Notes under the pieces: model-generated | Told to the model about the DNA's origin: nothing | Seen by the model: the letters and a program-made list of their open reading frames with translations, nothing else | Database searches by the model: none | Shown here: positions 805 to 22,829 of the stretch, one piece after another | Layout of the letters: each line of letters starts with the position of its first letter | Numbering within the stretch: position 1 is the first letter of the stretch | Position numbers and translations under genes: made by a program | Source of the DNA: a virus | Strand: one strand, 5' to 3' | Length of the DNA stretch: 33,516 bases | UHGV virus genome: UHGV-1464328

Positions 805-805
805 A

Positions 806-6634: not shown

Positions 6635-6664
6635 AAAGGGACCTTCGGGTCCCTTTTTTGTTTT
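6635..6664 (+). terminator. Rho-independent terminator: aaagggacc-UUCG-ggtcccttt followed by a T run.
   Basis: Perfect 9-bp stem, UUCG loop, ttttttgtttt. Confidence 0.85.
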
Positions 6665-6669
6665 CCAAC

Positions 6670-6685
6670 GGTATTAAATAATACC
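6670..6685. promoter_or_regulatory. Inverted repeat GGTATTA-aa-TAATACC, 12 nt upstream of the ATG at 6697. It contains a TATTAAATAA late-motif variant.
   Basis: Seen in sequence. Resembles the TTATTAAATAC variant at 17236. Confidence 0.3.
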
Positions 6686-6696
6686 AGAGGTGAACA

Positions 6697-7110: not shown

Positions 7111-7111
7111 T

Positions 7112-10100
7112 ATGGCTGTTGTTGCTGTAGGTGCAATTATTGCTGGCGCAGCTGCTGGCGCCGCGGCTTACGCTGCTGGTTTAACAATAGCGTGGTCAAT
7201 TGGTATAGGTCTTGCCACTGCCGCTATTTCTGGACTCATGTCTTATATGGCTATGAGCCAGACTGTTCCACAATATAACACTACTGATACAGCTACTGCG
7301 TTAGGTACTACTTCCGATCCAAAGACTGTTATTCCTGTGGTTTACGGACAGCAGCGAGTAGGCGGTATTAACGTATGGAAAGCAGTAGGTAAAGACACAA
7401 CTTATCTTGTTCAGATTTTCGCTATCAGTGAAGGTCAGATTGGTGGATTTAAATCTTTATATCTCGACAACAAGAAAATCGTTCTTGATGGGAATTATCA
7501 GAGTGGTATTCTTAACGAACAGGCTATACATCCAGATTATAGAAAATTTGTTGAAGTTGAATTGTCTGTTGGTGCTCCTAAGGGACATGTTTTCACACTG
7601 GCTCAGAAGTACTTAGGTAAAGACATCAATAACTCGGGTTGGCCTGACTCAGCAACTGGTAATAACGTTGCTTCAGTTTGTGTTGTTATGCGCAAACGTA
7701 ATAAAGACCTGCAAAACCAAGCTGATATTCTCCAGCCTAATTCTCAGTTAACTGCTGATATTAATGGTCTGTTAATTCAAGACCTCAACACCGGTAATAG
7801 AGAAGCGTCAAGAAATGGTCCAAGTCAACTTCTTGATTACGCAACTAACACTCGTTACGGTCTGGGTATTCCTCTTGATAAGATTGATACAGAGAGTTTT
7901 AAAGCGTGTGCTGACCACTCATTAAGAAACAATCTATACAGCGATGGTTCAACCGATCCAAACGCAACGTTTAAAGAAAACCTTACTCAAATGGCTGCTG
8001 CGTTTCAGGGTGTTATTTTTGAGTCCTTTGGCCGAATGACCTGCCGTATAGATGGTCCTGATGTAGTACAGTTTGATTTCAACGAAGATAATATCTCTGC
8101 TGGTTCAGTAACTCTTAACTCAGGTGGTTCAGAAGGTTATTACAACACGCTGAACGTTTCATACCAAGACCCTGCTCTTGATTACTCAGACCAAGTACTG
8201 CGTTATCCATCTGATACTGTTAATGATGGAACTATCGCAAAAGACAAGCGAATTATTGCTAAAGATATTACTTATCGTTTCGTTAAACAGAAATCTCAAC
8301 TGGATGTTATTGCATCAATCGAGCGTAATAAGTCTCTGTTGAAAAATCAGATTGTGTTCAGTACTGTCGATGCTTATACGGTTCAAGCATGGGACGTTAT
8401 TAGAGTTAATTTCCCTGAATTACAACTTCAAGACTCGTTATGGCGTGTTTTTCAAGTTGACCGTTCTTTAGAGAAAGGTGCTGCTGGACTGATTACTATC
8501 ACAGCTGCTGAGTACGACCCGAAGGTCTATACCGATCTAGATTATGCAAAAGACCCGAATAATTCAGGTTCAAACATTCCAAATGCATCTGTACTTATCG
8601 CACCAAAAAATCTGCAAGTAACTTCTGTTGCTGAAACTGCTATTGGACGTACTTTTAAAGTTCAATGGGAAAGTGAAGAAGATTTTAACCGAGCAGGTTT
8701 CTACGTTCAGTATGCTGTTTCTGGTACTGATGAGTGGACTCAAGCTGGTTTCACTTCAGGTAATTATTTCATGATAATGAACATGGATATTACCAAAAAG
8801 TACGATATCCGTGTTTGTGCCACTGGCCTTGTGTATCGTTCAGAGTGGGTCTATCAGAACAACACTAACCCTGCTGTTTCTTACCAGCTTCCAAGGGTCA
8901 CTGGATTGCGTCTAGTTAACTCTGATGCTGGGACTAATATCACCACGGCAACTCAGTTTGAATTCGCCTGGGATGACCAGAGTAACCAGAAATTCAACGT
9001 TAACGGTACTACTCAAACATTCGATGAAGTGTTCCAGTACTATGAAGTCCAAATCACTGGTACTAAGACCGTTTCGTACAGAACTAAGAACATTAACTTC
9101 ACGTATGATTTCAGAATGAACCAGTTGAACGGTCTGTCTCGTGAAATCACAATCAAAGTAATCGCTGTTGGTTATGCTGGTATGAAGTCAGAACCTGTTC
9201 AAATCACGGTTAAGAATAATCAGCATCCTGCGATTCAGAACTTCGTAGCTCGTACAGGTATTAGTCTTAACTCAGGTATGATTTTCACTCAGTGGAAACC
9301 TTCTACTGTTCCTGATTTTGAGCAAACTACTGTTCAGATTGCTCGCGATAAGGAGTTCACTAAAGAAGTTCGTTCATTCGTTTCTAAAGACGATGTTCTT
9401 AACTTTGAGTTAGGTGAAAACGGCGAAGGTACTTGGTACGTCAAAGCTGCTCAGAATGACGTATTTGGTTCTGATAACGTTGTATGGACAAGTCCTACAA
9501 TCTTAGACGTTAAGTATGAAATTCCGTTCACGCCTGATGATATTGACACTATCGAAGATATGCTTGGTCTTAAGGATAAGCTCAAGGATACTCTTGATAG
9601 CGCTAATACACATGCTAATAACGTTTCAGAGCAAGCTAAGAAAGATGCTGAAAAATACGCTGATGATACTGTTAAACGTTCTGAAGTAAAAACTAAAGAG
9701 TACACCGACGCTGAAGTTAAAAAATCTAATGACTATACTGATGCTGAAATAGGGAAATCTAATGATAGAACTGACGGAGCTATCAAAGACTCTGAAGCAA
9801 GAACTCAAGTTAAAATAACAGCAGCTCGTGAGTACACCGATACTCAAGTTGTGGAAGCTACTAAAGCTCTTAATCAAAAAATTGAAGAAAACACCACTGA
9901 AATAAACGGAAAAATTGACGGTGTTGAAACATCTATTAACGGTAAGATTACTACTATTGAGAAAAACCAAACGACTTTTGAGAAACAGACTAATCAGAAG
10001 TTCACTTCAATGGAAAGTAATTTCACTACTAAGATTGGTGAGTCTGAAAACCGTACTAACGCTAAAATCACTGGTCTTACAGAAACAGTAACTACTAATG

Positions 10101-11290
10101 ATAAAGCGTATGCTCAGAAGTTTGATAAAATGGAGAGTTCCATTGAGAATAACTCTTCTGAAATTGATAAGAGTAATGGCGAGATTAAAAAGAACACTGC
10201 TTCTATTTCTTCTTTACGTGAAACAGTAGCTACTAATGAAAAGAACACAGCAACTAGCATGGAACAACTAGAAGCTCGTGTAGGTGATAAAATCGCTAAT
10301 GTTTCTACTGAAGCTAAAGCTGAGATTGATAAAGTTACTAATCAAGTTAACTCTCAGTACGCAATGACTGTTGATGCTAATGGGGTTTATGCTGGTTTTA
10401 CTTTATTAGCGCAAGATGGTCCAGTTAAAGGTTCTAAAGCAATATTCGCAGCTGATAAGTTCATGATTGTTCCTACTGAACAAGACGCAGCGAAAGCTAA
10501 GCCAGTGTTTGCTGTAGATACAACTACCAGAACTGTCTATCTTGACAACGCTGTTATTAAAGATGCATCGATTGGTACTGCTAAAATTGCAGATGCTGCG
10601 ATTGATACAGCCAAAATTAAAGATGCTTCCATTACTAATGGAAAAATCACAGGGTTCATCCAATCAGATAACTATGTTCCTGGTTCTCAAGGTTGGAAAA
10701 TCAACAAGAACGGTGGTTCTGAATTTAGTAATGTTGTTGTTAGGGGTGAAGTACACGCTAATTCAGGTGTGTTTAACGGAACAGTTAACGCGCAGAATGG
10801 TGTGTTTAACGGAACAGTCAATGCTAATGGTGGTGTGTTTAACAACGTCAGAATTGAAAGAAACTGTACTGTTCTTGGAACTATCTACGCTGAGAATATT
10901 CAAGGCGATATCGTCACTATGACTGACCGTGTATCTAAAGCATGGCCACCTAGTGGTAATACAAGTTCTGGTACTCGTTATCCTATCGCAACTATTGACG
11001 GTATGCCATTTAACAGGGTTATGGTCTTTAGTGGTGATGTTTCTATTCAGCAAACATGGAGACAGAACGTTACTATTCGAGTTAATGAAGACGTTGTATG
11101 GACTTTTGACTCAGGTAACGATGGTAAAAACTTTAATACAAATATATTTTCATTCAGAGTTCCTGCTGCCCCTATGGGAACTAAGCAGTATATTACCATT
11201 CAATGGCCTAACCGTAGTGATAGCGGTAGGTTCGCGTTTACCGGTGTTGTTTCGTTGTACAAAACTTCAGGAAGCATAGCGTTAGCTTAA
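7112..11290 (+). CDS. Central tail fibre / tip attachment protein, lambda gpJ-like, 1392 aa. It has FN3-like repeats and a long alpha-helical repeat region.
   Basis: After a Gly/Ala-rich hydrophobic N-terminus, VIPVVYGQQRVGGINVWKAVG...IFAISEGQIGG matches the J N-terminal (LLSVIDAISEGPIEG) pattern. WxxSxxY-type FN3-like blocks. RBS AGGAG. Confidence 0.8.
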   Translation: MAVVAVGAIIAGAAAGAAAYAAGLTIAWSIGIGLATAAISGLMSYMAMSQTVPQYNTTDTATALGTTSDPKTVIPVVYGQQRVGGINVWKAVGKDTTYLVQIFAISEGQIGGFKSLYLDNKKIVLDGNYQSGILNEQAIHPDYRKFVEVELSVGAPKGHVFTLAQKYLGKDINNSGWPDSATGNNVASVCVVMRKRNKDLQNQADILQPNSQLTADINGLLIQDLNTGNREASRNGPSQLLDYATNTRYGLGIPLDKIDTESFKACADHSLRNNLYSDGSTDPNATFKENLTQMAAAFQGVIFESFGRMTCRIDGPDVVQFDFNEDNISAGSVTLNSGGSEGYYNTLNVSYQDPALDYSDQVLRYPSDTVNDGTIAKDKRIIAKDITYRFVKQKSQLDVIASIERNKSLLKNQIVFSTVDAYTVQAWDVIRVNFPELQLQDSLWRVFQVDRSLEKGAAGLITITAAEYDPKVYTDLDYAKDPNNSGSNIPNASVLIAPKNLQVTSVAETAIGRTFKVQWESEEDFNRAGFYVQYAVSGTDEWTQAGFTSGNYFMIMNMDITKKYDIRVCATGLVYRSEWVYQNNTNPAVSYQLPRVTGLRLVNSDAGTNITTATQFEFAWDDQSNQKFNVNGTTQTFDEVFQYYEVQITGTKTVSYRTKNINFTYDFRMNQLNGLSREITIKVIAVGYAGMKSEPVQITVKNNQHPAIQNFVARTGISLNSGMIFTQWKPSTVPDFEQTTVQIARDKEFTKEVRSFVSKDDVLNFELGENGEGTWYVKAAQNDVFGSDNVVWTSPTILDVKYEIPFTPDDIDTIEDMLGLKDKLKDTLDSANTHANNVSEQAKKDAEKYADDTVKRSEVKTKEYTDAEVKKSNDYTDAEIGKSNDRTDGAIKDSEARTQVKITAAREYTDTQVVEATKALNQKIEENTTEINGKIDGVETSINGKITTIEKNQTTFEKQTNQKFTSMESNFTTKIGESENRTNAKITGLTETVTTNDKAYAQKFDKMESSIENNSSEIDKSNGEIKKNTASISSLRETVATNEKNTATSMEQLEARVGDKIANVSTEAKAEIDKVTNQVNSQYAMTVDANGVYAGFTLLAQDGPVKGSKAIFAADKFMIVPTEQDAAKAKPVFAVDTTTRTVYLDNAVIKDASIGTAKIADAAIDTAKIKDASITNGKITGFIQSDNYVPGSQGWKINKNGGSEFSNVVVRGEVHANSGVFNGTVNAQNGVFNGTVNANGGVFNNVRIERNCTVLGTIYAENIQGDIVTMTDRVSKAWPPSGNTSSGTRYPIATIDGMPFNRVMVFSGDVSIQQTWRQNVTIRVNEDVVWTFDSGNDGKNFNTNIFSFRVPAAPMGTKQYITIQWPNRSDSGRFAFTGVVSLYKTSGSIALA
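10766..10851 (+). repeat. Tandem 33-bp repeat, about 2.6 copies, encoding GVFNGTVNAxN peptide units inside the J-like gene.
   Basis: ggtgtgtttaacggaacagttaacgcgcagaat / ggtgtgtttaacggaacagtcaatgctaatggt / ggtgtgtttaacaacgtc. Confidence 0.8.
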
Positions 11291-11329
11291 TTGACGAGCC
11301 AAGGACGGCTTTATTTCTGAGGCAAGACT

Positions 11330-11623
11330 ATGATAGGAGATATCACTGTATATCTTGCGATTGCTTCACTTGTGGGAGGATTAATAACATGGGGAATATC
11401 TGAGATAAGAAGAAAGTACTCTAATAAAGAAGACCTCGAAAGACGTATCACAGCTATCGAGTCGAAATTAGATATTAATAGTACTAACAGTAAGAATTAT
11501 CTTGAGCGTCTTAATGAAATTAAAGATGCATTAGTAGATATTCGTACAGAAATTCGGACTATTGAAGAAAGGACCCGTGGAAATGAAATTCAACTAGCAA
11601 GAATAGAAGGTCGTAATGATTAA
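11330..11623 (+). CDS. Membrane-anchored coiled-coil protein, 97 aa (N-terminal TM segment plus a heptad-rich C-terminus). Candidate i-spanin or holin-regulator type protein.
   Basis: YLAIASLVGGLITWGI looks like a TM segment, then EDLERRITAIESKL...LERLNEIKDALVDIRTEIRTIEER. Confidence 0.5.
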   Translation: MIGDITVYLAIASLVGGLITWGISEIRRKYSNKEDLERRITAIESKLDINSTNSKNYLERLNEIKDALVDIRTEIRTIEERTRGNEIQLARIEGRND

Positions 11624-12098
11624 AAGAAAAGACATTCCTGATTACAAACAAGAGTTATATAAAAGACAGAACAAACGATGTGCTCTAACTGGTGTTCTAA
11701 TTGAAGACGTTAATAAAGCACATCTTGACCATGACCATAAACTTGATGGACCCGGTGCAGGAAGATGCAGGGGTCTTCTGTTAGGTCAAGCGAATGTTCT
11801 TGAAGGGCGTATCAAGCATCAGTTTGAACGCTCTGGTCTTGCCGGGAAAATCGGCTATATAGATTTTCTTAAAAATCTTGTTTGTTATCTGGAGGCTGAT
11901 TATACAGCTAATCCTAGACACCCTCAGTTAATCCCAGACCTCATTAAACGGTTCAGCCGTATGAACCTTAATACAATGAGACAAAAGCTCTTAGAGTGTC
12001 ATCAGGAAGCTTCTGGGACAAAGCAAGAACTAACTCATAGGTATAAGAAATACCTAAGGTCAAAATATGAAAATAAACCTCAAGGAGTGTGCGTCTAA
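11616..12098 (+). CDS. Recombination endonuclease VII (T4 gp49-like Holliday-junction resolvase), 160 aa.
   Basis: HLDHDHKLDGPGAGRCRGLLLGQANVLEGRIKHQFERSGL matches T4 EndoVII HLDHDHELNGPKAGKVRGLL...KHKFNRSGL. Overlaps the previous gene by 8 nt. Confidence 0.85.
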   Translation: MIKRKDIPDYKQELYKRQNKRCALTGVLIEDVNKAHLDHDHKLDGPGAGRCRGLLLGQANVLEGRIKHQFERSGLAGKIGYIDFLKNLVCYLEADYTANPRHPQLIPDLIKRFSRMNLNTMRQKLLECHQEASGTKQELTHRYKKYLRSKYENKPQGVCV

Positions 12099-12252
12099 TA
12101 TCAAATCTGGAATGCTATTCGTTATAGCTGCTTCAGTAATCTATAACATGGTTATCGTTCCTTTACTTACCGCTTTCGGTGTTCCAGCACCAGTCATTCT
12201 TATTGATGAAGCAACTAAATTCCTCCTTACTCTTGGCACTATAGGTTTCTAA
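12067..12252 (+). CDS. Small two-TM membrane protein, 61 aa (holin-like topology; function unknown).
   Basis: Two hydrophobic segments, LFVIAASVIYNMVIVPLL and VPAPVILI...LLTLGTIGF. Overlaps the EndoVII 3' end in another frame. Confidence 0.4.
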   Translation: MKINLKECASNIKSGMLFVIAASVIYNMVIVPLLTAFGVPAPVILIDEATKFLLTLGTIGF

Positions 12253-12791
12253 TGGCTAAATTAAAATCAGTTAAAAATGACTTATCAAAATGGAAAATAA
12301 AGGAAATAGACGTATTCAGTAAGAAAGTAACTAAAGCATCTAAACTGGCATCTGTAGAACTTCAACGTAAAATCAACAGACGTGTTAAAGGTCCAGTTAA
12401 TTTTACTAAGAACGCAGTAGGTTTTAGCTTTAGATATGATAAGTACGGTTCAAAGAATAGGATATACATCAAAGATACTCAGGCTGATTATCTTAGTCAT
12501 TTGATTGATAATCCACGTCCCATTAATAAGTTTGTTCCAACAGGTGTTCAAGGTTCTAAGAACCAGTTCGGTAATATTCCTGGATTGAAAACCAAACGTA
12601 ATATGAAAGTGGTTAAACAGAAAAAGGACGGACAACAACGTACTATTCTGATCAAGACAAATGCAAGACGAAATAAACGATTAATCGCTGTGTTCAAACG
12701 AAATCAGTCAAGACGTAAAACGATAGGTAGTTGGGATAAGATTAGTCAAGATATTCTTAAGACAGTCAATAGAGTTGCGGGACTACGTTAA
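12252..12791 (+). CDS. Highly basic (Lys/Arg-rich) hypothetical protein, 179 aa. Possible nucleic-acid-binding or internal virion protein.
   Basis: Start overlaps the previous stop (TAATG). No recognisable family. Confidence 0.6.
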   Translation: MAKLKSVKNDLSKWKIKEIDVFSKKVTKASKLASVELQRKINRRVKGPVNFTKNAVGFSFRYDKYGSKNRIYIKDTQADYLSHLIDNPRPINKFVPTGVQGSKNQFGNIPGLKTKRNMKVVKQKKDGQQRTILIKTNARRNKRLIAVFKRNQSRRKTIGSWDKISQDILKTVNRVAGLR

Positions 12792-12800
12792 TAAATATCA
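12788..12800 (+). promoter_or_regulatory. Late-promoter-like motif TTAATAAATATCA, 21 nt upstream of the ATG at 12822.
   Basis: Family consensus, overlapping the upstream gene's stop codon. Confidence 0.5.
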
Positions 12801-12821
12801 GTATAATCTATAGGAGCTGAT

Positions 12822-13136
12822 ATGAACTTCCCTACATATTCTCAAGACGAACTTAAAAATATTACTATCAATGGAATTTGCCCAGAAAGTATGACACTTC
12901 TGTATGATTGCGCTGATATCAAAATTGAACGGTTTAAAAAGAACTTACTGAACGATAAAGACGTATTTGTTGTAAGTACACAAAAGAAAAAACCTTTGCA
13001 TCGCTTTAAAGAGTACCAAGAAGTCACGGTCAATAGCCAGTATCTCTTTGGCGATGTTGAGGCTTATTGTTTTGGCAAGACAGAATTTATCCATAAAGGA
13101 TTTAGGATGATTGCTTATTACTTTCAACTAAAATAA
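12822..13136 (+). CDS. Hypothetical protein, 104 aa.
   Basis: RBS TAGGAGCTGATATG. Ends at a bidirectional terminator. Confidence 0.6.
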   Translation: MNFPTYSQDELKNITINGICPESMTLLYDCADIKIERFKKNLLNDKDVFVVSTQKKKPLHRFKEYQEVTVNSQYLFGDVEAYCFGKTEFIHKGFRMIAYYFQLK

Positions 13137-13155
13137 AGGGACCGCAAGGTCCCTT
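13136..13155. terminator. Bidirectional terminator hairpin aagggacc-GCAA-ggtccctt between convergent genes. Also the left inverted-repeat boundary of the recombinase island.
   Basis: 8-bp stem, GNRA loop on + strand. T-rich on both sides (aaataaa / ttaatgttatttttt). Confidence 0.75.
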
Positions 13156-13159
13156 AATG

Positions 13160-13690
13160 TTATTTTTTCTCAAACATATTCAGTATTTCGTTATATACAT
13201 AATCATCTGATTTTAATAACTCAGGTACACTTCTGCGGTCTATGTGATTATCAGGATATCTATAGTATTCGCAAGGACAACCAGGTTCGCACTCATGCTC
13301 ACCAAGGAAATACTCTTTATCATAGACTTTCTTGCTTTCATCTATGAAAACATATTCAGTCATTGGCTTGGCAGAGGTTCCATCAAAATATTTCTTTTCT
13401 GAAATATCCATAGCGTTCCATTTTTCTGCGTTTTCTTTACTTATGTTAAACATTCTACGCACAGGATAATCATCGTATAGACCAAATCTGTAATTACCAG
13501 CTTCATCTAAGTAATAACGATGCGGGATGATTTCATTTTGATTTAAAGAAATCATTTCATCAAGTTCAGCTTTCCACTTAGGCATATTCTCAGTAGCCCA
13601 TTCAATCTCTAAAGTGTTCTTGTAGTAATTACAAGGACACGCAAGACCACATGAATGCTCACCCAGGTAGTATTCTTTTTCAGTTTTCAT
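13160..13690 (-). CDS. Cys-rich tandem-domain protein, 176 aa. Two copies of KEY(Y/F)LGEH-C-x3-C-P-C-xYY. Likely Zn-binding. Co-transcribed with the recombinase.
   Basis: N- and C-terminal 20-aa blocks are near-identical (EYYLGEHSCGLACPCNYY / EYFLGEHECEPGCPCEYY). Start overlaps the recombinase stop by 11 nt. Confidence 0.65.
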   Translation of the reverse strand: MKTEKEYYLGEHSCGLACPCNYYKNTLEIEWATENMPKWKAELDEMISLNQNEIIPHRYYLDEAGNYRFGLYDDYPVRRMFNISKENAEKWNAMDISEKKYFDGTSAKPMTEYVFIDESKKVYDKEYFLGEHECEPGCPCEYYRYPDNHIDRRSVPELLKSDDYVYNEILNMFEKK

Positions 13691-15197
13691 CAGAAGTTCC
13701 TTCTTTTAGTTTACGTAAATGCTCTTGTAGAGCTTTAGTATCTGCGTTTAACATTATCTTGCCGTTATTAACTATAAAGCTCTGATAATGCCCGTCAGTT
13801 TTTTCAATCTTAATCCTGATATTCTTAGGACCATTCAACTGAAAGATAGTTATTCTTTTAACTAACCGTTTTAGATATAGATTATACTGCTCGGCGTCTT
13901 TTATTGCAACCAATGTCTTGATATCAGCTGATTTTGGCGGTTGAACCTCTGGTTGCTCAAGAAGTTCTTGTAGTTCTTTCTCCAGCGTACTTATCGTTTT
14001 AAGTACAGAAACTGGAGGCATTTCCAATTCCAGAAGCATTTTGTTCAGTTGGTCTATCTTTTCACGCTTAGCTATTATCTGTTCATTCTTAATGTTCTTA
14101 ACTGAACGAGTTTTAATCTGTAGTTTATCAATAGCCTTTTCAAGAGGTATATGAAGGTCTCTAATAGCTTTGTTGTTCTTGCACCTGCCTTCAAATGAAC
14201 CGAAGCAATTAAAGTACTGGTACTCTTTAATTCCTTTTTTAGTTACTGATGTATTAACTTTCCTGCACAGAACAGCACCGCATTCACAATAAAGAACACC
14301 ACTGAATTTGTGTCTTGACGGTCGTCCTTTTGATACTCGTTTATCATCAAATTGAATTTGTGAAAATGTTTGATAATCAATCAGGGCAGGGTAGTAGTTT
14401 TCAATCAATGAAACAGGAATGTATTTTTCTTCAATAATCTGGTGTGTCTGATAAGCTCCGTAAAGAACTGGGCTTTTTAACAACCTCTTTACTGACATCT
14501 GGTACCATTGTTTTCCAGTTGGACCAGGAATGTTTTCTTCATTTAGTATGCGGGCAATCTTTCTAACGCCTTTTCCTTCAAGACGCATTTGAATAATTTT
14601 TCTCGCTAAATCAACACGTTTGTTGAACACGTACTTTTTGTTCTTCCTGTCATAATCAAGATAGAACACTGACTTACCGGGAAGGATTTCGCCATCAGCA
14701 GCTTTTTCACGGGCAATAGCCTTTGAAGCTTTAACAAGTTTTGATTTTCTTAATGACTCCTTGTGAGCTAAGTCAGCTGCTAGCGCAACTAATATCACTG
14801 AGCTTAAATCGTTCAAAGAGTCTTTGTTGAGGATATGTCCTTGAAGTGTTTTGGCATCTTCACCAACGAACGCGACCTTAACGTCGTACTGAAGGATTTT
14901 CTTCAGGATGTCTTGTGTATGGCTGATTCCTTTACGACTTAATCGGTCAATCGCCTCAATCAAGATATAACTGCCTGATGGGATATCACCAGTTTGAATG
15001 GCTTCAAGCATTTGCTCTAGCTCTGGGCGTCTGACGTTTTTGAACCCTGAGATGCCCAGGTCATGATAAGACTGATTGGACAGAGTTAGTCCATTTTGTG
15101 AACAGAACAGCTTAGAAGCATTTACCTGCCGTTCTAACGAAGTACCTGACGCTTGGTGCTTGGTACTGAACCTTACGTAACTGAATGCCAGTGTCAT
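13680..15197 (-). CDS. Large serine recombinase, 505 aa (resolvase catalytic domain, recombinase domain, Zn ribbon, coiled coil).
   Basis: N-terminal AFSYVRFSTKHQ is the YxRVSTxxQ catalytic-Ser motif. The recombinase core follows, then CECGAVLC...NCFGSFEGRCKNN, a Zn ribbon. Strong RBS GGAGG. Confidence 0.9.
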   Translation of the reverse strand: MTLAFSYVRFSTKHQASGTSLERQVNASKLFCSQNGLTLSNQSYHDLGISGFKNVRRPELEQMLEAIQTGDIPSGSYILIEAIDRLSRKGISHTQDILKKILQYDVKVAFVGEDAKTLQGHILNKDSLNDLSSVILVALAADLAHKESLRKSKLVKASKAIAREKAADGEILPGKSVFYLDYDRKNKKYVFNKRVDLARKIIQMRLEGKGVRKIARILNEENIPGPTGKQWYQMSVKRLLKSPVLYGAYQTHQIIEEKYIPVSLIENYYPALIDYQTFSQIQFDDKRVSKGRPSRHKFSGVLYCECGAVLCRKVNTSVTKKGIKEYQYFNCFGSFEGRCKNNKAIRDLHIPLEKAIDKLQIKTRSVKNIKNEQIIAKREKIDQLNKMLLELEMPPVSVLKTISTLEKELQELLEQPEVQPPKSADIKTLVAIKDAEQYNLYLKRLVKRITIFQLNGPKNIRIKIEKTDGHYQSFIVNNGKIMLNADTKALQEHLRKLKEGTSDEN

Positions 15198-15226
15198 TTC
15201 AACCTCCTGATACTGCTAAGTGGTTG

Positions 15227-15254
15227 ATTATAACAAGGTTATTGTTTTTGTAAA
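15227..15254 (-). promoter_or_regulatory. Sigma70-type promoter for the recombinase operon: -35 TTTACA, 16-nt spacer, extended -10 TGTTATAAT (on the minus strand).
   Basis: Reverse complement of 15227..15254. The -10 is a perfect TATAAT with a TGn extension, about 30 nt upstream of the ATG at 15197. Confidence 0.55.
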
Positions 15255-15354
15255 ATGATACTATTACCTGAAGAACAGTTTCATTTTGACAAAAAAATAT
15301 TTCAATCAATCTCAATAACTTAACGGCTTATGACTGTATGCCTGTACAGTTCTG

Positions 15355-15375
15355 GTGTACGCGTGTGCACACACG
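15355..15375. other. 21-nt perfectly alternating purine-pyrimidine tract (gtgtacgcgtgtgcacacacg), Z-DNA-prone. It contains the 10-bp palindrome GTGTGCACAC.
   Basis: Seen directly in the recombinase upstream intergenic region. Confidence 0.6.
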
Positions 15376-15424
15376 GATTATATTAAAACTCCGAGCAAAA
15401 CTTACTGTTTATCAAGGAGTTAAC

Positions 15425-15595
15425 ATGGAAAACCGCTTTGAAGATATTTTATTTGATACTGTGAACTCGATCGTTGAGCACACAAGGATAGGGCGTACTA
15501 AAGCTGTTACTAAGTTGTACAGAAACGGGAAGTTGGCAGCGGTGAGAACCATCACTGCGGAAGGTACTACATATGCTTTTAAAGGAGATAACTGA
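15425..15595 (+). CDS. Small hypothetical protein, 56 aa (MENRFEDILFD...).
   Basis: ATG has RBS AAGGAG. The track ORF from 15338 lacks an RBS. Its stop overlaps the next start (ATGA). Confidence 0.5.
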   Translation: MENRFEDILFDTVNSIVEHTRIGRTKAVTKLYRNGKLAAVRTITAEGTTYAFKGDN

Positions 15596-15981
15596 TGGAC
15601 CAGAAGTTCAAAGACGAGTTCTTGAAAGTAGGCATCACTGAACATCTACTGCCAGTGATTGAGCGGTTGTTTAGTCATACTGCGGGAAGGTTCTGTGAGA
15701 ATTTTGTTGAGCAAGAATGGGCTTCATTGGATTTTCCGGGATTAATCTATCATCCTCTGAATATCACCGGGTATTACGTAGTCAATCCCTGTAATCAATC
15801 AGATGCTATTCTGAACAACAGAGAGTTTGGAGCATTCGTCTCAATGATGACGATTAATAACCTCTGTTGGAAGTTCGAGAACACAGACTATTGCTCAAGC
15901 ATATGTGATTTGTACTATCAAACGAGGGAGTCATTCTATGATAACTTTAAAAACCCCTCATTATTCAGGCTTGTAGATTAA
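15595..15981 (+). CDS. Hypothetical protein, 128 aa. Translationally coupled to the 56-aa ORF.
   Basis: RBS GGAG. Ends at the 15986 terminator. Confidence 0.6.
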   Translation: MDQKFKDEFLKVGITEHLLPVIERLFSHTAGRFCENFVEQEWASLDFPGLIYHPLNITGYYVVNPCNQSDAILNNREFGAFVSMMTINNLCWKFENTDYCSSICDLYYQTRESFYDNFKNPSLFRLVD

Positions 15982-15985
15982 AGAT

Positions 15986-16009
15986 AAGGGACCTTGCGGT
16001 CCCTTTTTA
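15986..16009. terminator. Bidirectional terminator hairpin aagggacc-TTGC-ggtccctt plus ttttt. It is the inverted copy of the 13136 hairpin and the right boundary of the island.
   Basis: Same stem and flank (AAATAAA..GGGACCGCAAGGTCCCTTA) as 13131-13156, in reverse complement. Confidence 0.75.
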
Positions 16010-16666
16010 TTTGACTGACGTCCAACGTGCTTCACTATTCCACTTACCAATTCGAGCAAAGAAACTGTCATTTTCATTACCCGGATAAGCACGATGGACA
16101 CCATCTGATGCGTGATTACGAGCTGATTTTTCAAGTACAGCCCAGATACTATCTAAAGTTGCTTCTGTTTCGTTCTTACATTCTGCGTCATTATAATCAA
16201 GTTGAATGCTTAACTTATCAATGACTCCAGTAAAGATGTTAAAACTCGTCTGAACTGAACCATTGTTTGGGTTAATAAAACCAATATCAATTTTTACTTC
16301 AGAGTTATCAAGAGCTTTAGAACGAATAAGGCTGATATACTCAGTACGCACGTTTGATAGACGGACTGTCATACCAATGTTATTAATCTCTTTACTTTCT
16401 TGAATAGTACTAATGTCTGTAAAATCACCAGTAGCAAGATAAGTCTTTCCTTGATATTGAACATCAAAGTAAGCATCCGTAATGAGTAGTTCTTGATTAT
16501 CATGAGTTTTGATGCTTACGAAGTGGAACAAAGTACCAACAGAAAATAACTGGCTAAGACTTAGCGAAGTAACGCTAGTTCCATTAAAATCGTTATATGC
16601 ACTGATAAAATCAGGGTTCTTGCATAACTCATCAAATCTTTGTTTGATATTATTAATCTCAGACAT
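16007..16666 (-). CDS. Tail tip protein, lambda gpL-like (tentative), 219 aa.
   Basis: The block YQGKTYLATGDF...IGMTVRLSNV resembles lambda L QGRQYQPYPIQGSGFE...PTLTVSNLYG. Coupled (TAATG) to the upstream M-like gene. Confidence 0.45.
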   Translation of the reverse strand: MSEINNIKQRFDELCKNPDFISAYNDFNGTSVTSLSLSQLFSVGTLFHFVSIKTHDNQELLITDAYFDVQYQGKTYLATGDFTDISTIQESKEINNIGMTVRLSNVRTEYISLIRSKALDNSEVKIDIGFINPNNGSVQTSFNIFTGVIDKLSIQLDYNDAECKNETEATLDSIWAVLEKSARNHASDGVHRAYPGNENDSFFARIGKWNSEARWTSVK

Positions 16667-17226
16667 TAGATGTTCTCCGTTGCTGTGAATGATATTTTAC
16701 TAATGCTTTTCAAATCGTAAGGTATAGAGTCATTTGTCAGAATAAACTCACCGCGAGGGTTCTGATATTTAACAGTCTCACCATTCTGAACGTTCTTTAT
16801 TAAAGCAGGGAATAACTTCATTGGTTTTCCTGAAACAACATCTTCAGTTACAGTATAAAGTTTTTTATGATTTTCAAACTGTACGATAGTCCCGGTCTCT
16901 AATGTACCAGTGAAACCATTAACTACCACCTGACGAGCACCAGGTTGAAGTGTTTGAGTAGATTTAACAGAACCACGAGCTGTACCTGTGTATTGACCAG
17001 CATAGCTGATATTAAATTCAAAAGGACGTCCATACATATGCTTGGCAATAAAGTTCTGAACAATAGAAGTGTCATTTGACATATAGTTAGCGCTAAAGTC
17101 CAAACTATAGTACTGAACACCTGTGTATCTTCTTTGATATTTTCCTGATACTGCTCTGTTACCGAAGAACGGAGCGTTAGACGTTAGTTTAACGTCAGAT
17201 ATTTTAACGTTAGTGTTAGATAACAT
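16666..17226 (-). CDS. Minor tail protein, lambda gpM-like (tentative), 186 aa.
   Basis: FFGNRAVSGKYQRRYTGVQYYSLDFS...HMYGRPFEF follows the pattern of lambda M FGDGYSQRAPAGLNANLKTYSVTLS...HGGWKSFLW. RBS AAGAGG. Confidence 0.4.
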   Translation of the reverse strand: MLSNTNVKISDVKLTSNAPFFGNRAVSGKYQRRYTGVQYYSLDFSANYMSNDTSIVQNFIAKHMYGRPFEFNISYAGQYTGTARGSVKSTQTLQPGARQVVVNGFTGTLETGTIVQFENHKKLYTVTEDVVSGKPMKLFPALIKNVQNGETVKYQNPRGEFILTNDSIPYDLKSISKISFTATENI

Positions 17227-17230
17227 AAGA

Positions 17231-17280
17231 GCCTCTTATTAAATACGTATACAAATCTATTTAATAAGAAAATAAGAGGC
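17231..17280. promoter_or_regulatory. Compact bidirectional control palindrome. Mirrored RBSs (AATAAGAGGC on each strand) flank divergent late-like motifs: CTTATTAAATAC (+, 17236-17246) and CTTATTAAATAG (-, 17257-17267).
   Basis: gcctcttattaaatacgtatacaaatctatttaataagaaaataagaggc lies between the minus ATG at 17226 and the plus ATG at 17284. Confidence 0.5.
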
Positions 17281-17283
17281 CGT

Positions 17284-17769
17284 ATGACATTATATGAAAT
17301 GCTCCGCTTTGATGAAGGCGAGAAACTACAAGTTTATAAAGACACCGAAGGATATTGGACTATTGGTATTGGTCATTTATTGACTAAGAACCCATCTAAG
17401 GAACAAGCCATCGCTTGTCTTGATAAAGAACTAAAACGAGTTACTTCTGGCGTTATCTCAAAATCAGAGTCAGAACAGCTGTTCAATCAGGACACCTCTA
17501 GGGCACTCCAGGACATTTCCCGCTCAGAATTGAGTTCCATATACATTCAAATGAATGGACCTCGTAGGGCTGCTCTGGTGAACATGGTGTTCCAGTTAGG
17601 GCTCACTGGTGTGTTGAAGTTCACTAAGATGGTTAAGTACCTCAAAGCACAAAATTATGAAGCAGCTGCTGATGAGTCATTGGATAGTCGTTGGGCAAGA
17701 CAGACACCTAATCGTGCTCGTCGTGTATCTGAGGTTATTCGGACAGGAACCTTTAGTTCTTACAGTTGA
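17284..17769 (+). CDS. Endolysin, T4 lysozyme (GH24) family, 161 aa.
   Basis: [35 protein letters not shown] matches T4 e [35 protein letters not shown]. Glu11, Asp20 and Thr26 are conserved. C-terminal NRARRV matches NRAKRV. Confidence 0.95.
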   Translation: [161 protein letters not shown]

Positions 17770-17777
17770 TAAATACA
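17766..17777 (+). promoter_or_regulatory. Late-promoter-like motif TTGATAAATACA, 27 nt upstream of the ATG at 17805.
   Basis: Overlaps the lysozyme stop codon. RBS AAAGGTAAAATAAATG downstream. Confidence 0.5.
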
Positions 17778-17804
17778 CCTATAAACTAACTAAAGGTAAA
17801 ATAA

Positions 17805-18119
17805 ATGTCTAAATTTAACTTCGAAGAAATGATTGCTGCTCTTAGCCCTAAACGTGAAGCAGTAGAACTTAATGGCTTTAAATTCTATGCTCGTCCAATG
17901 ACTGTATCTGAATTTGGTGAAGCTTTCTATCAGGGTAAAGATAAAGAAGACCGAAACGACATCATGATTTTGGAATGCATCGAACATGAAGATGGTTCTA
18001 AAGTTTTCGAATCTGTTGAACAGGTAAAGGCTCTTTATACTACTGTTCGTGCTCAACTCGCTAGTGCTGTTACTCGTGCAAGTATCTTTACTGAAACTGT
18101 AGAAGAACTGGAAAAGTAA
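17805..18119 (+). CDS. Tail assembly chaperone (gpG-like), 104 aa.
   Basis: Small acidic protein immediately upstream of the tape measure. Followed by an RBS-less ORF in the -1 frame. Confidence 0.6.
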   Translation: MSKFNFEEMIAALSPKREAVELNGFKFYARPMTVSEFGEAFYQGKDKEDRNDIMILECIEHEDGSKVFESVEQVKALYTTVRAQLASAVTRASIFTETVEELEK

Positions 18120-18502
18120 TACGCGCCAACGATTTTTTAATGTTCAAATTCAGGACCATGATGCGTAAAGGACTCACTGGAGATGAAATACTCTCCATGA
18201 GTATGAAAGAATTCTACATGATATATCTGTTCGATACTTTCATTGAGCCTCAAGGTCCTGTCATGAACGATTTCTATCAGGCGCGTCTGGCGCATAGTGT
18301 AATAGCTTCTAATCCTAATCTTACTGCTGAAGGCCGTAAGAAAATCAATATGAAAGATTTCTATCTGTTGAAGGATAAAGTATTCAAAAGTCCTGAAGAA
18401 CTTCAAAAAGAAAAACAGAAAGAGCAAGAACGTAAACGAAAAGCTCTTGAAAGTATGTTTGAACCTGAACTTCTGGCTAAAGCTAGAAAGTCAATCAAAT
18501 AA
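18095..18502 (+). CDS. -1 frame extension ORF (gpT-like part of a G/GT frameshift chaperone). The ATG-initiated ORF at 18140 (120 aa) has no RBS.
   Basis: The -1 frame is open from 18095. Candidate slip at GAA-AAG-TAA (18111-18119), Lys-tRNA on A-AAG at the stop codon. C-terminus is basic and coiled-coil-like. Confidence 0.45.
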   Translation, partial: NCRRTGKVIRANDFLMFKFRTMMRKGLTGDEILSMSMKEFYMIYLFDTFIEPQGPVMNDFYQARLAHSVIASNPNLTAEGRKKINMKDFYLLKDKVFKSPEELQKEKQKEQERKRKALESMFEPELLAKARKSIK

Positions 18503-18511
18503 GGTGGAATA

Positions 18512-20776
18512 ATGGCACGTTCTAGATATGACGTAGAAATTAATGGCGACAACAAAGGTCTAACAACGGCCGTTAATAAATCTATGGATGAACTGAACAA
18601 ACTCAATGAGGTCGCCGGAGGGTTGTTCAGTAATTTAACCGGACCACTTGGTAGTCTCCAGGGTGGTATTAACACCATCAACACAATGAACCCTGCTTTA
18701 CGTGCTCTTGGCGTAGCAGGGTTAGCGGCTGGTGCTGGACTCGCAGCAATCAATAAAGCAGCGGATACAGTTAATACGCTTAATCAGATTAGTACAAACA
18801 CAGGTGTATCTGTTGAGATGCTTCAAAAACTCCAGAATCAGTTCAAAGATACTGGGATGGAAGCTGAGAAGTTCGGTGATATCAACAAAGATGCAATGGA
18901 TAAACTTGGTGACTCATTCAGAAACGGTGGCGGTGGCGTAGCTGATGACCTGAAAGAATGGGGTATAGAACTACAAGAATATACCAAATATGCTGGTGAT
19001 GCTGAAGGTGGTATCAAAGCTGTAATTGATACTTTCTATAAAATGAAAGAAGCTGGTAAATCTCATGCTGAAATCACTAACGCAATGGAAACAATGGCGA
19101 GTGATTCAAGTCATTTAATTACGACTCTTGAGAAGTACAGTTCTACACAAGAAGCCCTTAACAGTATTAATAGACAACACGCTAATATTACTAAAGAAAC
19201 TTCTGAGGAATATAAGAACTTCCAGAAGAACATCAACACCTTGAATAATAATATTCAGGACTTAACTGTTCAAGCTGTAACTCCATTAGTTGCTGAAATC
19301 AATGACCTTTGGTCGTTGTTTAACAAAGAGTGGACCAAGAGCGATATCATGGACGCTCTTAAACAGTTCTGGTACGGCGGTGATACGGCTATTGCAAAGC
19401 TTAACCGTTGGGTTGATGGCGTTGATGAAGAAGGATATAGCACAGCTTCTAAGCAACGCGCCGCAAATCTTAAACAGATGGCAGCTGATTTAGCTAGTGA
19501 TGTTAAAACATCTGTTGACCAAGCCGAAGAAGCAACTGCTGCTCAGAAGAACATCCTTAAGAAACAGCAAGAAGAAAAAGATAAAGCTGATGCTAAGGCT
19601 AAAGCCGCGCGTGATAAGGCTCTTGCTGACGCTAAGCGTAACGCAGCTGAGCAATTAAGAGTTCAACAAGAACTTCTTAAAGGTCTACAGTCATTATCTG
19701 AGTCTTCGTCTGGTGCTAATCTGATTGATTATAACGCTGAGGGAATTAAGTTAATCCAGAACGTTAACACTCAGGCAGAGTTATTCAAAAATATAATGAA
19801 GAACCTCACTGACGAGTATAAAAATTCGTTCAGAGAAATGAGTGGTAAAGAACTTGGTGATAGTCTTACTAAGTTAAAAGACTATTACAGTACTCGCGAG
19901 TTACTTCTTAAACAGTCTCTTGAAAATCAGAAAATCGCTCAGAAGCAGTACAATGAAGAAGTTCAGAGAATGCAGGCTGAACAGAAAGCTATTGAAGATG
20001 CTCAACAAGGGATAGATGGAAAAGGAAATCAACTAAAAGACCTGTCGAGTATTGGCTTTACTACTTCAGACGAAGAAATTCAGCTCCAGCAGCAGAAACT
20101 TCATGAGCAATTCCAGATGATGTACGAGAACAACCAGTCGATGTATGAAGCTGGTCTGGTACAGCATGATGATTTTCTTAAACAGAAACAACGTCTTGAC
20201 CAAGCGTATGCTATTAAATCTCAAGCTATTGAACGTCAATCTGCACAGCAGAAACTTCAAATCGCTAATGATTTAACTTCTGGCATAAGCTCGGCTATGA
20301 CAGGTATGTTAGGTGAGAACAACAAAGCTGCTCAAGCAATGTTTGCAGTGTCTAAAGGAGTGGCTATTGCAAATGGTATGATGAACGCTCATGAGTCTGC
20401 TACGACTGCTATGGCCAAATATCCAGGACCACTAGGGTATGCGCTCGCAGCTTCATCATACGCTCGTGTTCTTACTGAAGTAATGCAGATGAAATCTATG
20501 TCTCTCGGTCAATTCCATGATGGTATCGATAATGTTCCTAACACAGGTACTTATCTGTTACAAGAGGGTGAGCGAGTAGTAGATAATCGGTTGAACCAAG
20601 ACCTAAAAGACTTCTTAGGCAAACAAGAAACTGGAAAAACAGACAGTCAACCAATCGATGCATCTATCAATATCAGTGGTTCTGTTAATGGTGAACGTGA
20701 GTTAATGCAGATAATGAAACGTCAACAAAAAATCCTAGCTGATATTGTTCAAGATGCTAATCGGCGTAGAATGTAA
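18512..20776 (+). CDS. Tail tape measure protein, 754 aa.
   Basis: Position after the G/GT pair. Long Ala/Gln/Lys/Glu-rich helical central region (AKAKAARDKALADAKRNAAEQLRVQQELLK). Gly-rich N-terminal part. RBS AAGGTGG. Confidence 0.8.
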   Translation: MARSRYDVEINGDNKGLTTAVNKSMDELNKLNEVAGGLFSNLTGPLGSLQGGINTINTMNPALRALGVAGLAAGAGLAAINKAADTVNTLNQISTNTGVSVEMLQKLQNQFKDTGMEAEKFGDINKDAMDKLGDSFRNGGGGVADDLKEWGIELQEYTKYAGDAEGGIKAVIDTFYKMKEAGKSHAEITNAMETMASDSSHLITTLEKYSSTQEALNSINRQHANITKETSEEYKNFQKNINTLNNNIQDLTVQAVTPLVAEINDLWSLFNKEWTKSDIMDALKQFWYGGDTAIAKLNRWVDGVDEEGYSTASKQRAANLKQMAADLASDVKTSVDQAEEATAAQKNILKKQQEEKDKADAKAKAARDKALADAKRNAAEQLRVQQELLKGLQSLSESSSGANLIDYNAEGIKLIQNVNTQAELFKNIMKNLTDEYKNSFREMSGKELGDSLTKLKDYYSTRELLLKQSLENQKIAQKQYNEEVQRMQAEQKAIEDAQQGIDGKGNQLKDLSSIGFTTSDEEIQLQQQKLHEQFQMMYENNQSMYEAGLVQHDDFLKQKQRLDQAYAIKSQAIERQSAQQKLQIANDLTSGISSAMTGMLGENNKAAQAMFAVSKGVAIANGMMNAHESATTAMAKYPGPLGYALAASSYARVLTEVMQMKSMSLGQFHDGIDNVPNTGTYLLQEGERVVDNRLNQDLKDFLGKQETGKTDSQPIDASINISGSVNGERELMQIMKRQQKILADIVQDANRRRM

Positions 20777-20798
20777 AAGGGACCTACGGGTCCCTTTT
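20777..20798 (+). terminator. Rho-independent terminator aagggacc-UACG-ggtccctt plus tttt.
   Basis: Same conserved stem as the terminators at 6635, 13136 and 15986. Confidence 0.8.
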
Positions 20799-20833
20799 GT
20801 AATTATTTGAACGCTAACTAATTGGTGGGATCT

Positions 20834-21463
20834 ATGTTAGATAATTTGGTCAAGTCCCAATTGCTTAGGGCAGATCTTGTAGCTGCAGATGAGCATTTCG
20901 TTGCGCACGGATACACCGGTATGACGGGGATAGTTCTACTCAAATCAGCATTAGTGGCAGTGTCGAATCTGGTTGATTTTGAATCATCAATTAGTCGTTT
21001 GTACAAGGAAGCACCACATCTATCGGAGATCTACAAAACTGCTTCTAAGGAGTTTAAGTTCGCTAAGTACTTACGTAATAAATTTGCAGCGCATATACAT
21101 CCTGAATTATTAGCCAAGGCTATAGAGTGGAAGCCTGAGCTTAGGTTCCTCGCAGATAGAATGGATGAACAACAAATCATGCAGTTTTGCAATCTTTGCG
21201 TACTCGAAACAGCAATAAACACATATGTTGATCAAAGCGGAGATCATCTGGTTTTTGACTCCGAGACTGACTTATTCTTCCCGAATGACACTGAGCGTTT
21301 CAGCAGGTTTTTAGAGAAAGTAATTAGAACAGGAATTCAGTATCTTACTGAACTGGGAGTTGTGCTAAGAAGTAAAATAGATAAGCCAGCAGAAGGGTTA
21401 GAGTCTCTTGAGTATTGGAAAACTGCGGGATTAACAGAGTTCAATTTTATTGCTAAACAATAA
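20834..21463 (+). CDS. Hypothetical accessory protein, 209 aa. It contains an Rx5H (RNKFAAH) motif of the HEPN type, but this is weak evidence.
   Basis: ATG at 20834 has RBS GGTGGGA. The track ORF begins at an upstream TTG (20822). No late motif upstream. Confidence 0.55.
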   Translation: MLDNLVKSQLLRADLVAADEHFVAHGYTGMTGIVLLKSALVAVSNLVDFESSISRLYKEAPHLSEIYKTASKEFKFAKYLRNKFAAHIHPELLAKAIEWKPELRFLADRMDEQQIMQFCNLCVLETAINTYVDQSGDHLVFDSETDLFFPNDTERFSRFLEKVIRTGIQYLTELGVVLRSKIDKPAEGLESLEYWKTAGLTEFNFIAKQ

Positions 21464-21478
21464 GGGACAATGTCCCTT
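21462..21478. terminator. Short hairpin aaggga-caatg-tccctt between convergent genes. Weak bidirectional terminator.
   Basis: Seen directly. Poor U tract. Confidence 0.35.
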
Positions 21479-21512
21479 ATCATATAGTTATAGGTTATTT
21501 GGAATCTGTGCC

Positions 21513-21923
21513 TTAACTGACTTTGCAGTTGTTAAGATAAACAAAACTCATTGTAGTCAAATTATCATGCATATACATTCTATCGGTGCCTTTGGCGTGT
21601 TTAAGATACCCACCAGAGCTATTGCTTGATTGGCCTACGGAATCTGAAAAACCCATTAAATTTGAGAAGCCTACAAACATAAACCCAGATTTGTTAATAA
21701 CATCTGATGAGCTAATCGAGTAGTTAAACCATAAGTAATGGTCATGTACTACAGCTGTGTCATATACAGGTTCTGCTTCTAGGTTGTGCATGTCTTTAAT
21801 TGTCGCATCGCATTGATAAGTTCTTGGTTTACCCGCCATGAATGCGAGGCCGATAGCACCTGCAATAACTATAGTGACAAGAGTCTTAATGGAATTTGAT
21901 TTTACGTTCTGACTGATGTTCAT
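21513..21923 (-). CDS. Periplasmic signal-anchored (or secreted) protein, 136 aa. Candidate superinfection-exclusion or host-surface-modifying moron.
   Basis: N-terminal KTLVTIVIAGAIGLAFMAG is a hydrophobic signal. Strong RBS AAGGAG. Has its own sigma70-like promoter. Ser/Asn-rich. Confidence 0.65.
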   Translation of the reverse strand: MNISQNVKSNSIKTLVTIVIAGAIGLAFMAGKPRTYQCDATIKDMHNLEAEPVYDTAVVHDHYLWFNYSISSSDVINKSGFMFVGFSNLMGFSDSVGQSSNSSGGYLKHAKGTDRMYMHDNLTTMSFVYLNNCKVS

Positions 21924-21945
21924 TTTGTTCTCCTTGTGTGTGCGT

Positions 21946-21974
21946 ATAATAATACATTTAAATAAAATCGTAAA
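21946..21974 (-). promoter_or_regulatory. Sigma70-like promoter on the minus strand: -35 TTTACG, 17-nt spacer, -10 TATTAT. About 23 nt upstream of the ATG at 21923.
   Basis: Reverse complement of 21946..21974. Confidence 0.4.
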
Positions 21975-22045
21975 CTTCTATTATCTTCCATTGTTCGCGA
22001 AGCAGTGATTTTTTAAAACAGTTTTAATTGAATCTATTGAGATCA

Positions 22046-22078
22046 AAGCTTTAATCAGAGACACTCTGATTAAAGCTT
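22046..22078. repeat. Perfect 15-bp inverted repeat, AAGCTTTAATCAGAG-aca-CTCTGATTAAAGCTT. Candidate protein-binding palindrome, possibly a cos- or terminase-associated site.
   Basis: Seen directly, about 210 nt upstream of the Nu1-like gene. Confidence 0.7.
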
Positions 22079-22228
22079 ATGTCGCAGGAAATGCATAATT
22101 ATTTTGGGGCACGATAAGAAGCGGGATGTTTCGGGACCGCATCCTTTAGTTGACCTGTAAAATTTTAATTCCATTGCAATTCAAGTTGGACTCCGGGGTT
22201 TACAGTCTCGTGAAATCATAGACACACG

Positions 22229-22240
22229 TTAATAAATATC
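22229..22240 (+). promoter_or_regulatory. Late-promoter-like motif TTAATAAATATC, 47 nt upstream of the ATG at 22288.
   Basis: Family consensus. Confidence 0.5.
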
Positions 22241-22287
22241 GTAGGTGTACTAAGTTATTAATTTAAATAAACTACTGGAGAAATTCT

Positions 22288-22812: not shown

Positions 22813-22829
22813 TTTGAAAAAGCGGTAGA

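Follow-up and report, generated by a model that had tools for sequence, protein, structure and literature searches.

Large serine integrases such as those of phiC31, Bxb1, A118/LI and TP901-1 combine a resolvase catalytic domain with a recombinase domain and a Cys-rich, coiled-coil C-terminal part. In phiC31-type systems the attP site lies directly upstream of the integrase gene, forms an imperfect palindrome of about 50 bp around a 2-bp crossover, and is exchanged conservatively. A different use of serine recombinases is seen in the Hin/Gin/Cin/Pin switches, the enzymes of which are about 190 aa in length, carry a C-terminal helix-turn-helix (HTH), require both an enhancer and Fis to act at identical sites of 26 bp, and invert coding segments. 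The 2.9-kb island at nt 13131–16010 of the virus genome UHGV-1464328 resembles these switches in that a serine recombinase gene is carried on a segment bounded by inverted repeats and situated among tail genes. An earlier interpretation, made from the bases alone (the sequence-only reading), proposed that the island is inverted by recombination at the two bracketing hairpins, and named an integrase/attP module of a temperate phage and a mobile cassette inserted at a terminator as alternatives. In the current study the whole stretch of 33,516 bases (the window) was analysed, and the island is very probably the integration module of a temperate tailed Klebsiella phage of ~33.5 kb, comprising a large serine recombinase (LSR) integrase with attP upstream of its own gene, and flanked by hairpins that are predicted to act as two-way terminators. 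The features of the region are collected in Table 1.

Table 1. Positions of the features discussed, counted from the first base of the window.
Feature	Position (nt)	Strand	Basis or remark
Large serine recombinase, phage integrase, 505 aa	13680..15197	-	Pfam, PHROG, position at prophage edge, match to cluster1762
Integrase promoter, TTTACA-16-TGnTATAAT	15227..15254	-	11/12 sigma-70 match, extended -10
attP, TTTTTGTAAAATGATACTATTACC-TG-AAGAACAGTTTCATTTTGACAAAAA (+ strand)	~15245..15295		Homology break at prophage junctions; empty attB; Durrant catalogue
Accessory protein, 176 aa	13160..13690	-	Overlaps integrase gene by 11 nt; predicted translational coupling
Left hairpin, AAGGGACC-GCAA-GGTCCCTT	13136..13155		Predicted two-way intrinsic terminator
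Right hairpin, AAGGGACC-TTGC-GGTCCCTT	15986..16005		Predicted two-way intrinsic terminator
Third stem copy, AAAGGGACC-TTCG-GGTCCCTTT	6635..6656		Same terminator stem, outside the island
Fourth stem copy, AAAAGGGACC-TACG-GGTCCCTTTT	20772..20801		Same terminator stem, 3' of tape-measure gene
Palindrome CGCGTGTGCACACACG, 16 nt, perfect core	15360..15375		~50 nt upstream of 56-aa gene
56-aa gene	15425..15595	+	Transcribed away from attP
128-aa gene, function not assigned	15595..15981	+	Overlaps 56-aa gene in ATGA

The identification of the 505-aa product as a large serine recombinase is confirmed by its domain content. Pfam detects the catalytic domain at residues 4–118 (PF00239, Resolvase, E 4e-19) and the Recombinase domain at residues 195–282 (PF07508, E 1e-16), and the PHROG 95 integrase family aligns over residues 4–465 (E 2e-71). 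A Cys cluster (CECGAVLC...NCFGSFEGRC) and a heptad-rich stretch with a predicted coiled coil are visible at residues ~300–420, and would give an arrangement like that of the four integrases listed above. Judging by its place in the domain, S11 (in YVRFS11TKHQ) is the candidate catalytic serine. Identity to integrases in the phage collection is at most 25–30%, the sole sequence match in PDB is a catalytic-domain fragment, and a scan of IMG/VR with the integrase alone returned no confirmed relative. Unlike the phiC31-type integrases, this one belongs to a Gram-negative host, Klebsiella, and has a conserved small Cys-rich gene coupled downstream of it.

As in the phiC31-type systems, attP lies directly upstream of the integrase gene. 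It is an imperfect palindrome of ~50 bp, the symmetry centre of which is exactly TG at nt 15269–15270, 71 nt upstream of the integrase start codon. The site was located by comparison with loci in public assemblies (numbered with the prefix L). An exact-sequence look-up of the integrase recovered one contig with the arrangement of the window (L001), and others (L002–L004) in which identity to the window ends at nt 15270 and is followed by bacterial genes (aldehyde dehydrogenase, ApbA and others), placing the integrase gene at the edge of integrated prophages. Looking up the 128-aa protein, encoded on the other side of attP, led to the reciprocal junction, with flanks from either the FeaR side or the aldehyde-dehydrogenase side, and looking up the 104-aa protein of the adjacent tail region gave additional integrase-side junctions. 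Both prophage ends were found on single contigs in L006+L034 (~33.7 kb) and L012+L040 (~33.4 kb), which carry attL and attR together, while attP itself is present in the window, L001 and L022. At junctions of opposite polarity, the chromosome-specific flank (..GTGCCG) and the phage-specific arm (AAGAAC..) meet at the same dinucleotide. Since both specific flanks abut the same two bases, the crossover is mapped to that dinucleotide, and is confined to the 2-bp core.

The integration target is the intergenic region between feaR and feaB of Klebsiella, where attB reads ...GAAAGAACTATTACC-TG/CG-CGGCACATTTCTG.... A search for attB in host genomes had been suggested along with the sequence-only reading, and the attB rebuilt from attL and attR does exist uninterrupted in K. 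pneumoniae ATCC 13883 (L042, nt 7361–7383), as GTATATGAAAGAACTATTACC-CG-CGGCACATTTCTGCGAGGG. An empty attB with a TG core is also present in a Kluyvera genome assembled from a metagenome. The rebuilt attB is the same as the empty site, showing that the exchange is conservative and proceeds without target duplication. With the junctions, two complete prophages and an empty attB in hand, the alternative of an integrase/attP module of a temperate phage is the one that prevails. We infer that it is the 505-aa integrase which catalyses the attP x attB reaction. It would bind attP and recombine it with attB in the feaR–feaB intergenic region, so placing the integrase–accessory operon at one end of the prophage and the operon of the 56-aa and 128-aa genes at the other. 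In the phage-form contig L022 (nt ~8238–8285), attP is a nearly perfect palindrome, ..ATACTATTACT-TG-GGTAATAGTTTC.., and its inner P' arm is like the B and P arms and unlike the AAGAACA of the window.

The recombinase gene has, as was also claimed, its own sigma-70 promoter with an extended -10, and the promoter scan gave no better sigma-70 match anywhere in the first 20 kb. By coordinates, its -35 hexamer (nt 15249–15254) falls within the P arm of attP, and remains linked to the integrase gene after integration. By way of this hexamer, the integrase could repress its own promoter.

The module belongs to a kind of system that is already known. Durrant et al. 2022 (PMC10083194, supplementary file 3) list, from computational analysis, a cluster1762 element (NZ_PPXT01000030.1, nt 7264–8781) with a 97% identical integrase and the same attB and attP, and therefore the integrase and its sites have already been catalogued computationally. 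That entry corresponds to locus L023, which has a CG core and a flipped cassette. Compared with it, the phage of the window has a TG core, the opposite cassette orientation, the 176-aa accessory protein and the extra 128-aa gene. For neither the cluster1762 element nor the window phage was any experimental characterisation found. The finding of an integrase/attP module is in itself ordinary, and its value rests on the observations on inversion, on the sharing of the module, on the Cys-rich protein and on integration polarity that are described below. It does provide, with the core resolved to 2 bp, the attP/attB pair of a large serine integrase from enterobacteria that is as yet uncharacterised, and such enzymes are wanted for genome engineering.

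Integration polarity differs according to the core dinucleotide. At TG-core junctions (loci among L002–L057) the integrase lies beside the aldehyde-dehydrogenase side in 23 of 23 cases (23:0), while CG-core junctions are divided between this polarity (11) and the opposite one (9), i.e. 11:9. Fisher's exact test of core type against polarity gives p = 3e-4, a value to be read with the understanding that the genomes are not independent samples. At CG sites both polarities were found in each of three element types, namely the phage in window orientation, the phage with a flipped cassette, and a restriction-modification island (the last two are described below). The flank haplotype of ATCC 13883, the type strain of K. 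pneumoniae, agrees with the CG core. In serine integrases, synapsis is blind to the alignment of the sites, and the wrong product is blocked by the non-palindromic central dinucleotide alone (PMC1470463; PMC3783163, citing Ghosh 2003 and Smith 2004). Both polarities with the palindromic CG core, and a single polarity with TG, are just what this mechanism predicts. In the limited literature searched, no report was found of prophages inserted both ways at a core that is naturally palindromic, which is not proof of novelty. The opposite-polarity junctions had also been considered as products of mismatch repair after an exchange in the wrong orientation, an explanation that was dropped after variants of attB and attP with a CG core were found. 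Hosts with CG and TG cores represent a natural test of the rule, from work on Bxb1 and phiC31, that the central dinucleotide alone sets polarity. On balance it is probable that integration is orientation-blind at the CG attB of K. pneumoniae, and, in addition, that the terminator-bounded cassette has been inverted in the phage, is shared with non-phage islands, and is always accompanied by a small unannotated protein with a His-Cys3 motif, maybe a clade-specific cofactor.

The hairpins at the two ends of the island are indeed in inverted orientation. The sequences at nt 13130–13156 and nt 15985–16011 form an inverted repeat of 27 nt that is 93% complementary, with the stem GGGACC/GGTCCC and the loop GCAA/TTGC. 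The left hairpin lies between the stops of the 104-aa tail-region gene (13136, + strand) and the accessory gene (13160, - strand), and folds as RNA with -13.9 kcal/mol on the - strand, where it is followed by UUUAUUUU, and -14.7 kcal/mol on the + strand. The right hairpin lies between the stops of the 128-aa gene (15981, + strand) and a baseplate-hub-like gene (16007, - strand), with -15.6 kcal/mol on the + strand, where UUUUUAUUU follows, and -14.7 kcal/mol on the - strand. Fold z-scores are from -3 to -5, and in each case the U-tract follows in the direction of the module operons. The two hairpins had been described as the only two copies that share loop and flank. The island pair is indeed the only one to share a loop, but the stem itself occurs twice more, at nt 6635–6656 and nt 20772–20801, and a search for the stem-loop allowing up to 3 mismatches gave 4 matches in the genome where 0.03 would be expected by chance. 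All four belong to the family AAAGGGACC-N4-GGTCCCTTT, and this exact motif is present in at least 120 unrelated viral contigs of IMG/VR. The GC-rich 8-bp stem, 4-nt loop, upstream A-tract, downstream T-tract, location between convergent stops and recurrence in the genome are all as in Rho-independent terminators, although the stem AAAGGGACC/GGTCCCTTT is more uniform over the four sites than is usual for these, and also occurs in distant islands. The hairpins are better fitted by two-way Rho-independent terminators than by recombinase crossover sites, and the pair would end both of the divergent module operons as well as the convergent tail-gene operons.

Whether the island could nevertheless be an invertible switch, with crossover by the integrase or some other recombinase at the GCAA/TTGC centres and flipping of the 2.9-kb segment within the phage population, was considered in the light of a sister lineage (integrase variant P0153; L015–L024). 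In this lineage the hairpins and the flanking tail genes are the same, but the whole integrase–attP cassette between them is flipped. In L022, nt 517–7935 correspond to window nt 5741–13155, nt 7944–10282 correspond to window nt 15586–13248 in inverted orientation, and nt 10588–17351 correspond to window nt 15981–22750, so that the flanks are collinear up to the hairpins and the flip has its breakpoints there. Over 2.39 kb, the flipped cassette shares 97.5% identity with a non-flipped one that encodes the same 248-aa accessory, while the latter is only 94% identical to the cassette of the window. As the flipped cassette is nearest to a non-flipped one, this is a genuine inversion that arose inside the family, and the cassette was not acquired independently from some distant source. 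As a switch operated by recombination at the hairpins it is nonetheless highly improbable. The crossover of the integrase is mapped to nt 15269–15270, and the hairpin regions resemble the P, P', B and B' half-sites no more than random windows of the genome do. The attP and attB sites recombined by large serine integrases differ from each other, and two identical sites are not their substrate (PMC3783163). The enzyme of the window, unlike those of the Hin/Gin/Cin/Pin switches, is 505 aa long with a Recombinase domain and has separate att sites. A conserved asymmetric GCAA/TTGC core, on which the sequence-only reading had relied, is contradicted by the relatives: the loop at the left position is GCAA in the window and TTGC in same-orientation relatives with the 85-aa or 248-aa accessory variants, the loop at one and the same position varies among close relatives between GCAA, TTGC and GAAA, and TTGC is the loop of both hairpins in the L012+L040 genome, which makes them direct repeats. 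Each integrase variant that was looked up shows one orientation. For the variant of the window, 7 contigs were summarised as 4 places, of which 3 reach the accessory-side flank, all in window orientation; for P0153, the 10 places into which 24 contigs were summarised are all flipped, and rare isomers are beyond what assemblies can exclude. The flipped form is without the 128-aa gene, and so is no clean inversion. Moreover, the repeats are predicted terminators outside coding sequence, and the motif is widespread in unrelated phages. The flip points to a rare evolutionary rearrangement at terminators, for which recombination between short repeats is the simplest guess. The hairpins thus mark the breakpoints of an evolutionary inversion, with or without a part played by the integrase.

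The cassette has a wider distribution. Integrase variant P0152, from the same 90% protein cluster (85% nucleotide identity), is accompanied by an accessory of 136 aa and by the same hairpin stem, here with the loop ATGA or ATTA. At the same feaR–feaB attB, this unit makes up the edge of an island that is not a phage (L048–L057; integrase nt 4001–5518, hairpin nt 5923–5942). The cargo of the island includes an HTH gene, a 213-aa small resolvase, an N6/N4 methyltransferase and a HindIII-like restriction enzyme. A 69% identical integrase borders a different island, of ~9.5 kb, in K. oxytoca (L025–L030), where the accessory is reduced to a 40-aa open reading frame (ORF). That island also carries a small resolvase, response regulators and a 1103-aa Y4jQ-family protein, and adjoins a 5'-nucleotidase gene. 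A further island is bordered by a 41% homologue (L045, nt 1687–3649), directly downstream of which is a 132-aa accessory (32% identity), followed at nt 3656 by a hairpin with the same GGGACC-N4-GGTCCC stem and the loop TCAA. These cases, together with the two orientations of the phage cassette and their breakpoints at the hairpins, raise the prospect that the attP–integrase–accessory–terminator unit is a portable cassette exchanged among unrelated mobile elements, its insertion or re-orientation being due to recombination (homologous or illegitimate) at the hairpins and not to the integrase. Such a history is compatible with the integration module, to which it adds an evolutionary dimension, and the evidence leaves it about evenly balanced: only a single flip lineage was sampled, repeats as short as 20–27 bp recombine inefficiently, and the shared hairpin, being a common form of terminator, could have arisen by convergence. 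The alternative of a mobile cassette at a terminator thus has some support, as the same unit is present in a non-phage island and flipped between the same hairpins in the sister lineage.

Several points weigh against the interpretation of the island as an integration module flanked by simple terminators. The zinc-ribbon domain PF13408, for which matches are precomputed in homologues such as P0034, P0035 and P0039, gave no match in the window integrase at E<0.01. The exact 9-bp hairpin stem is also found 3' of the accessory gene in the island with the 41% identical integrase, which is more conservation than a terminator needs, though the motif is common in phages. Among the non-structural genes (nt 21500–27400) no repressor, antirepressor or replication genes were recognised by Pfam or PHROGs, which leaves full temperate competence tentative, and the junction evidence is drawn wholly from public assemblies. 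Because so many unrelated viral contigs contain the motif, the possibility that the stem downstream of the accessory in distant islands is a specific site for protein binding or recombination was not retained.

The accessory protein is as had been described, i.e. a Cys-rich protein of 176 aa with a tandem repeat, the gene of which overlaps that of the recombinase by 11 nt. It contains two EHxCx3CPC motifs, and the repeat finder detected a direct repeat of 60 nt (72%) at a spacing of 360 nt. The layout is that of a full unit, consisting of the His-Cys3 motif EHxCx3CxC and a WN..SEKKYFDG domain, followed by a truncated second unit. The basic unit is ~132 aa and has an invariant Y, E-H and C-x3-C-x-C, as well as the WN..SEKKYFDG segment. 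This unit is duplicated in tandem in the 248-aa form, and the form in the window corresponds to one and a half units. Lengths among the relatives are 40, 85, 132, 136, 146–155, 176, 179 and 248 aa. Word-indexed and exhaustive searches gave only a handful of relatives, a tiny unannotated family, and all of the members examined are encoded directly downstream of this integrase clade, in phage as well as islands, down to 41% integrase and 32% accessory identity. A tblastn search of phages with the 176-aa protein found no match, and Pfam found no family match. An AlphaFold model of the 176-aa protein made without an alignment was unusable (pLDDT 32), and a model of the 132-aa unit from an alignment of 5 sequences (pLDDT 72) gave no Foldseek match in PDB (best E 2.6).

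A role of this protein as the recombination directionality factor, or some other cofactor, of the integrase clade is suggested by its occurrence only beside that clade and by its invariant motif, and known directionality factors are without a common fold and often unannotated (PMC12286644). Such a role is still rather unlikely, as co-transcription and translational coupling with the integrase would make excision constitutive, the protein is cut to 85 or 40 aa in some otherwise intact elements, and neither Pfam nor the structural model matched any known family or fold. By position, the 56-aa gene facing attP is just as good a choice, and it is kept in both cassette orientations, including the flipped L022. 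Both the Cys-rich partner gene and the 56-aa gene are candidates for the missing directionality factor.

The two-gene overlapping operon that had been noted on the other strand is present (ORFs at nt 15338/15425–15595 and nt 15595–15981). For its first gene, the 56-aa start (nt 15425) is favoured over the 85-aa start (nt 15338) by a Shine-Dalgarno sequence and by the gene calls of public contigs. The 56-aa protein shows a weak, sub-threshold Pfam match to T4 Cef; from its position alone it is a candidate excision (directionality) factor, as plausible in this capacity as the accessory protein. The 128-aa gene lies at the attL end of the prophages and is absent from the flipped cassette type, and a Pfam scan of its product gave no match. 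The palindrome CGCGTGTGCACACACG is kept in all junction loci, and could be an operator for this rightward operon.

The window represents a whole genome in circularly permuted form, as deduced from the similar length of the complete prophages on single contigs (33.4–33.7 kb) and from an ORF that continues across its ends. The latter codes for a 659-aa fusion of prohead protease (Peptidase_S78) and major capsid protein, and runs from nt 31563 to 33516 and on into bases 1–23. Scans with PHROG and Pfam recognised most of the expected structural genes (tail fibres, tail-tip, endonuclease VII, minor tail, distal-tail, hub, lysozyme, chaperone, tape measure, small and large terminase, portal and head-tail connector). 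Look-ups of protein clusters gave Klebsiella (pneumoniae complex) and Raoultella as hosts. Megablast found no match to nt 12000–17500 in the phage collection, nor to the island in complete E. coli genomes, and the nearest deposited phage in that collection, DCP80, has a TerL of merely 50% identity. Scans of the window for Rfam families, tRNAs and tandem repeats gave nothing relevant. The region at ~25.5–26.9 kb is poor in ORFs, and a 21-nt repeat of 2.7 copies is found at nt 26183–26235. An HNH endonuclease gene (nt 26907–27413) is situated just upstream of the large terminase, and the endonuclease VII gene (nt 11616–12098) is among the tail genes. Endonuclease VII cleaves cruciform DNA, and it may be speculated that this activity could bear on rearrangements at palindromic hairpins.

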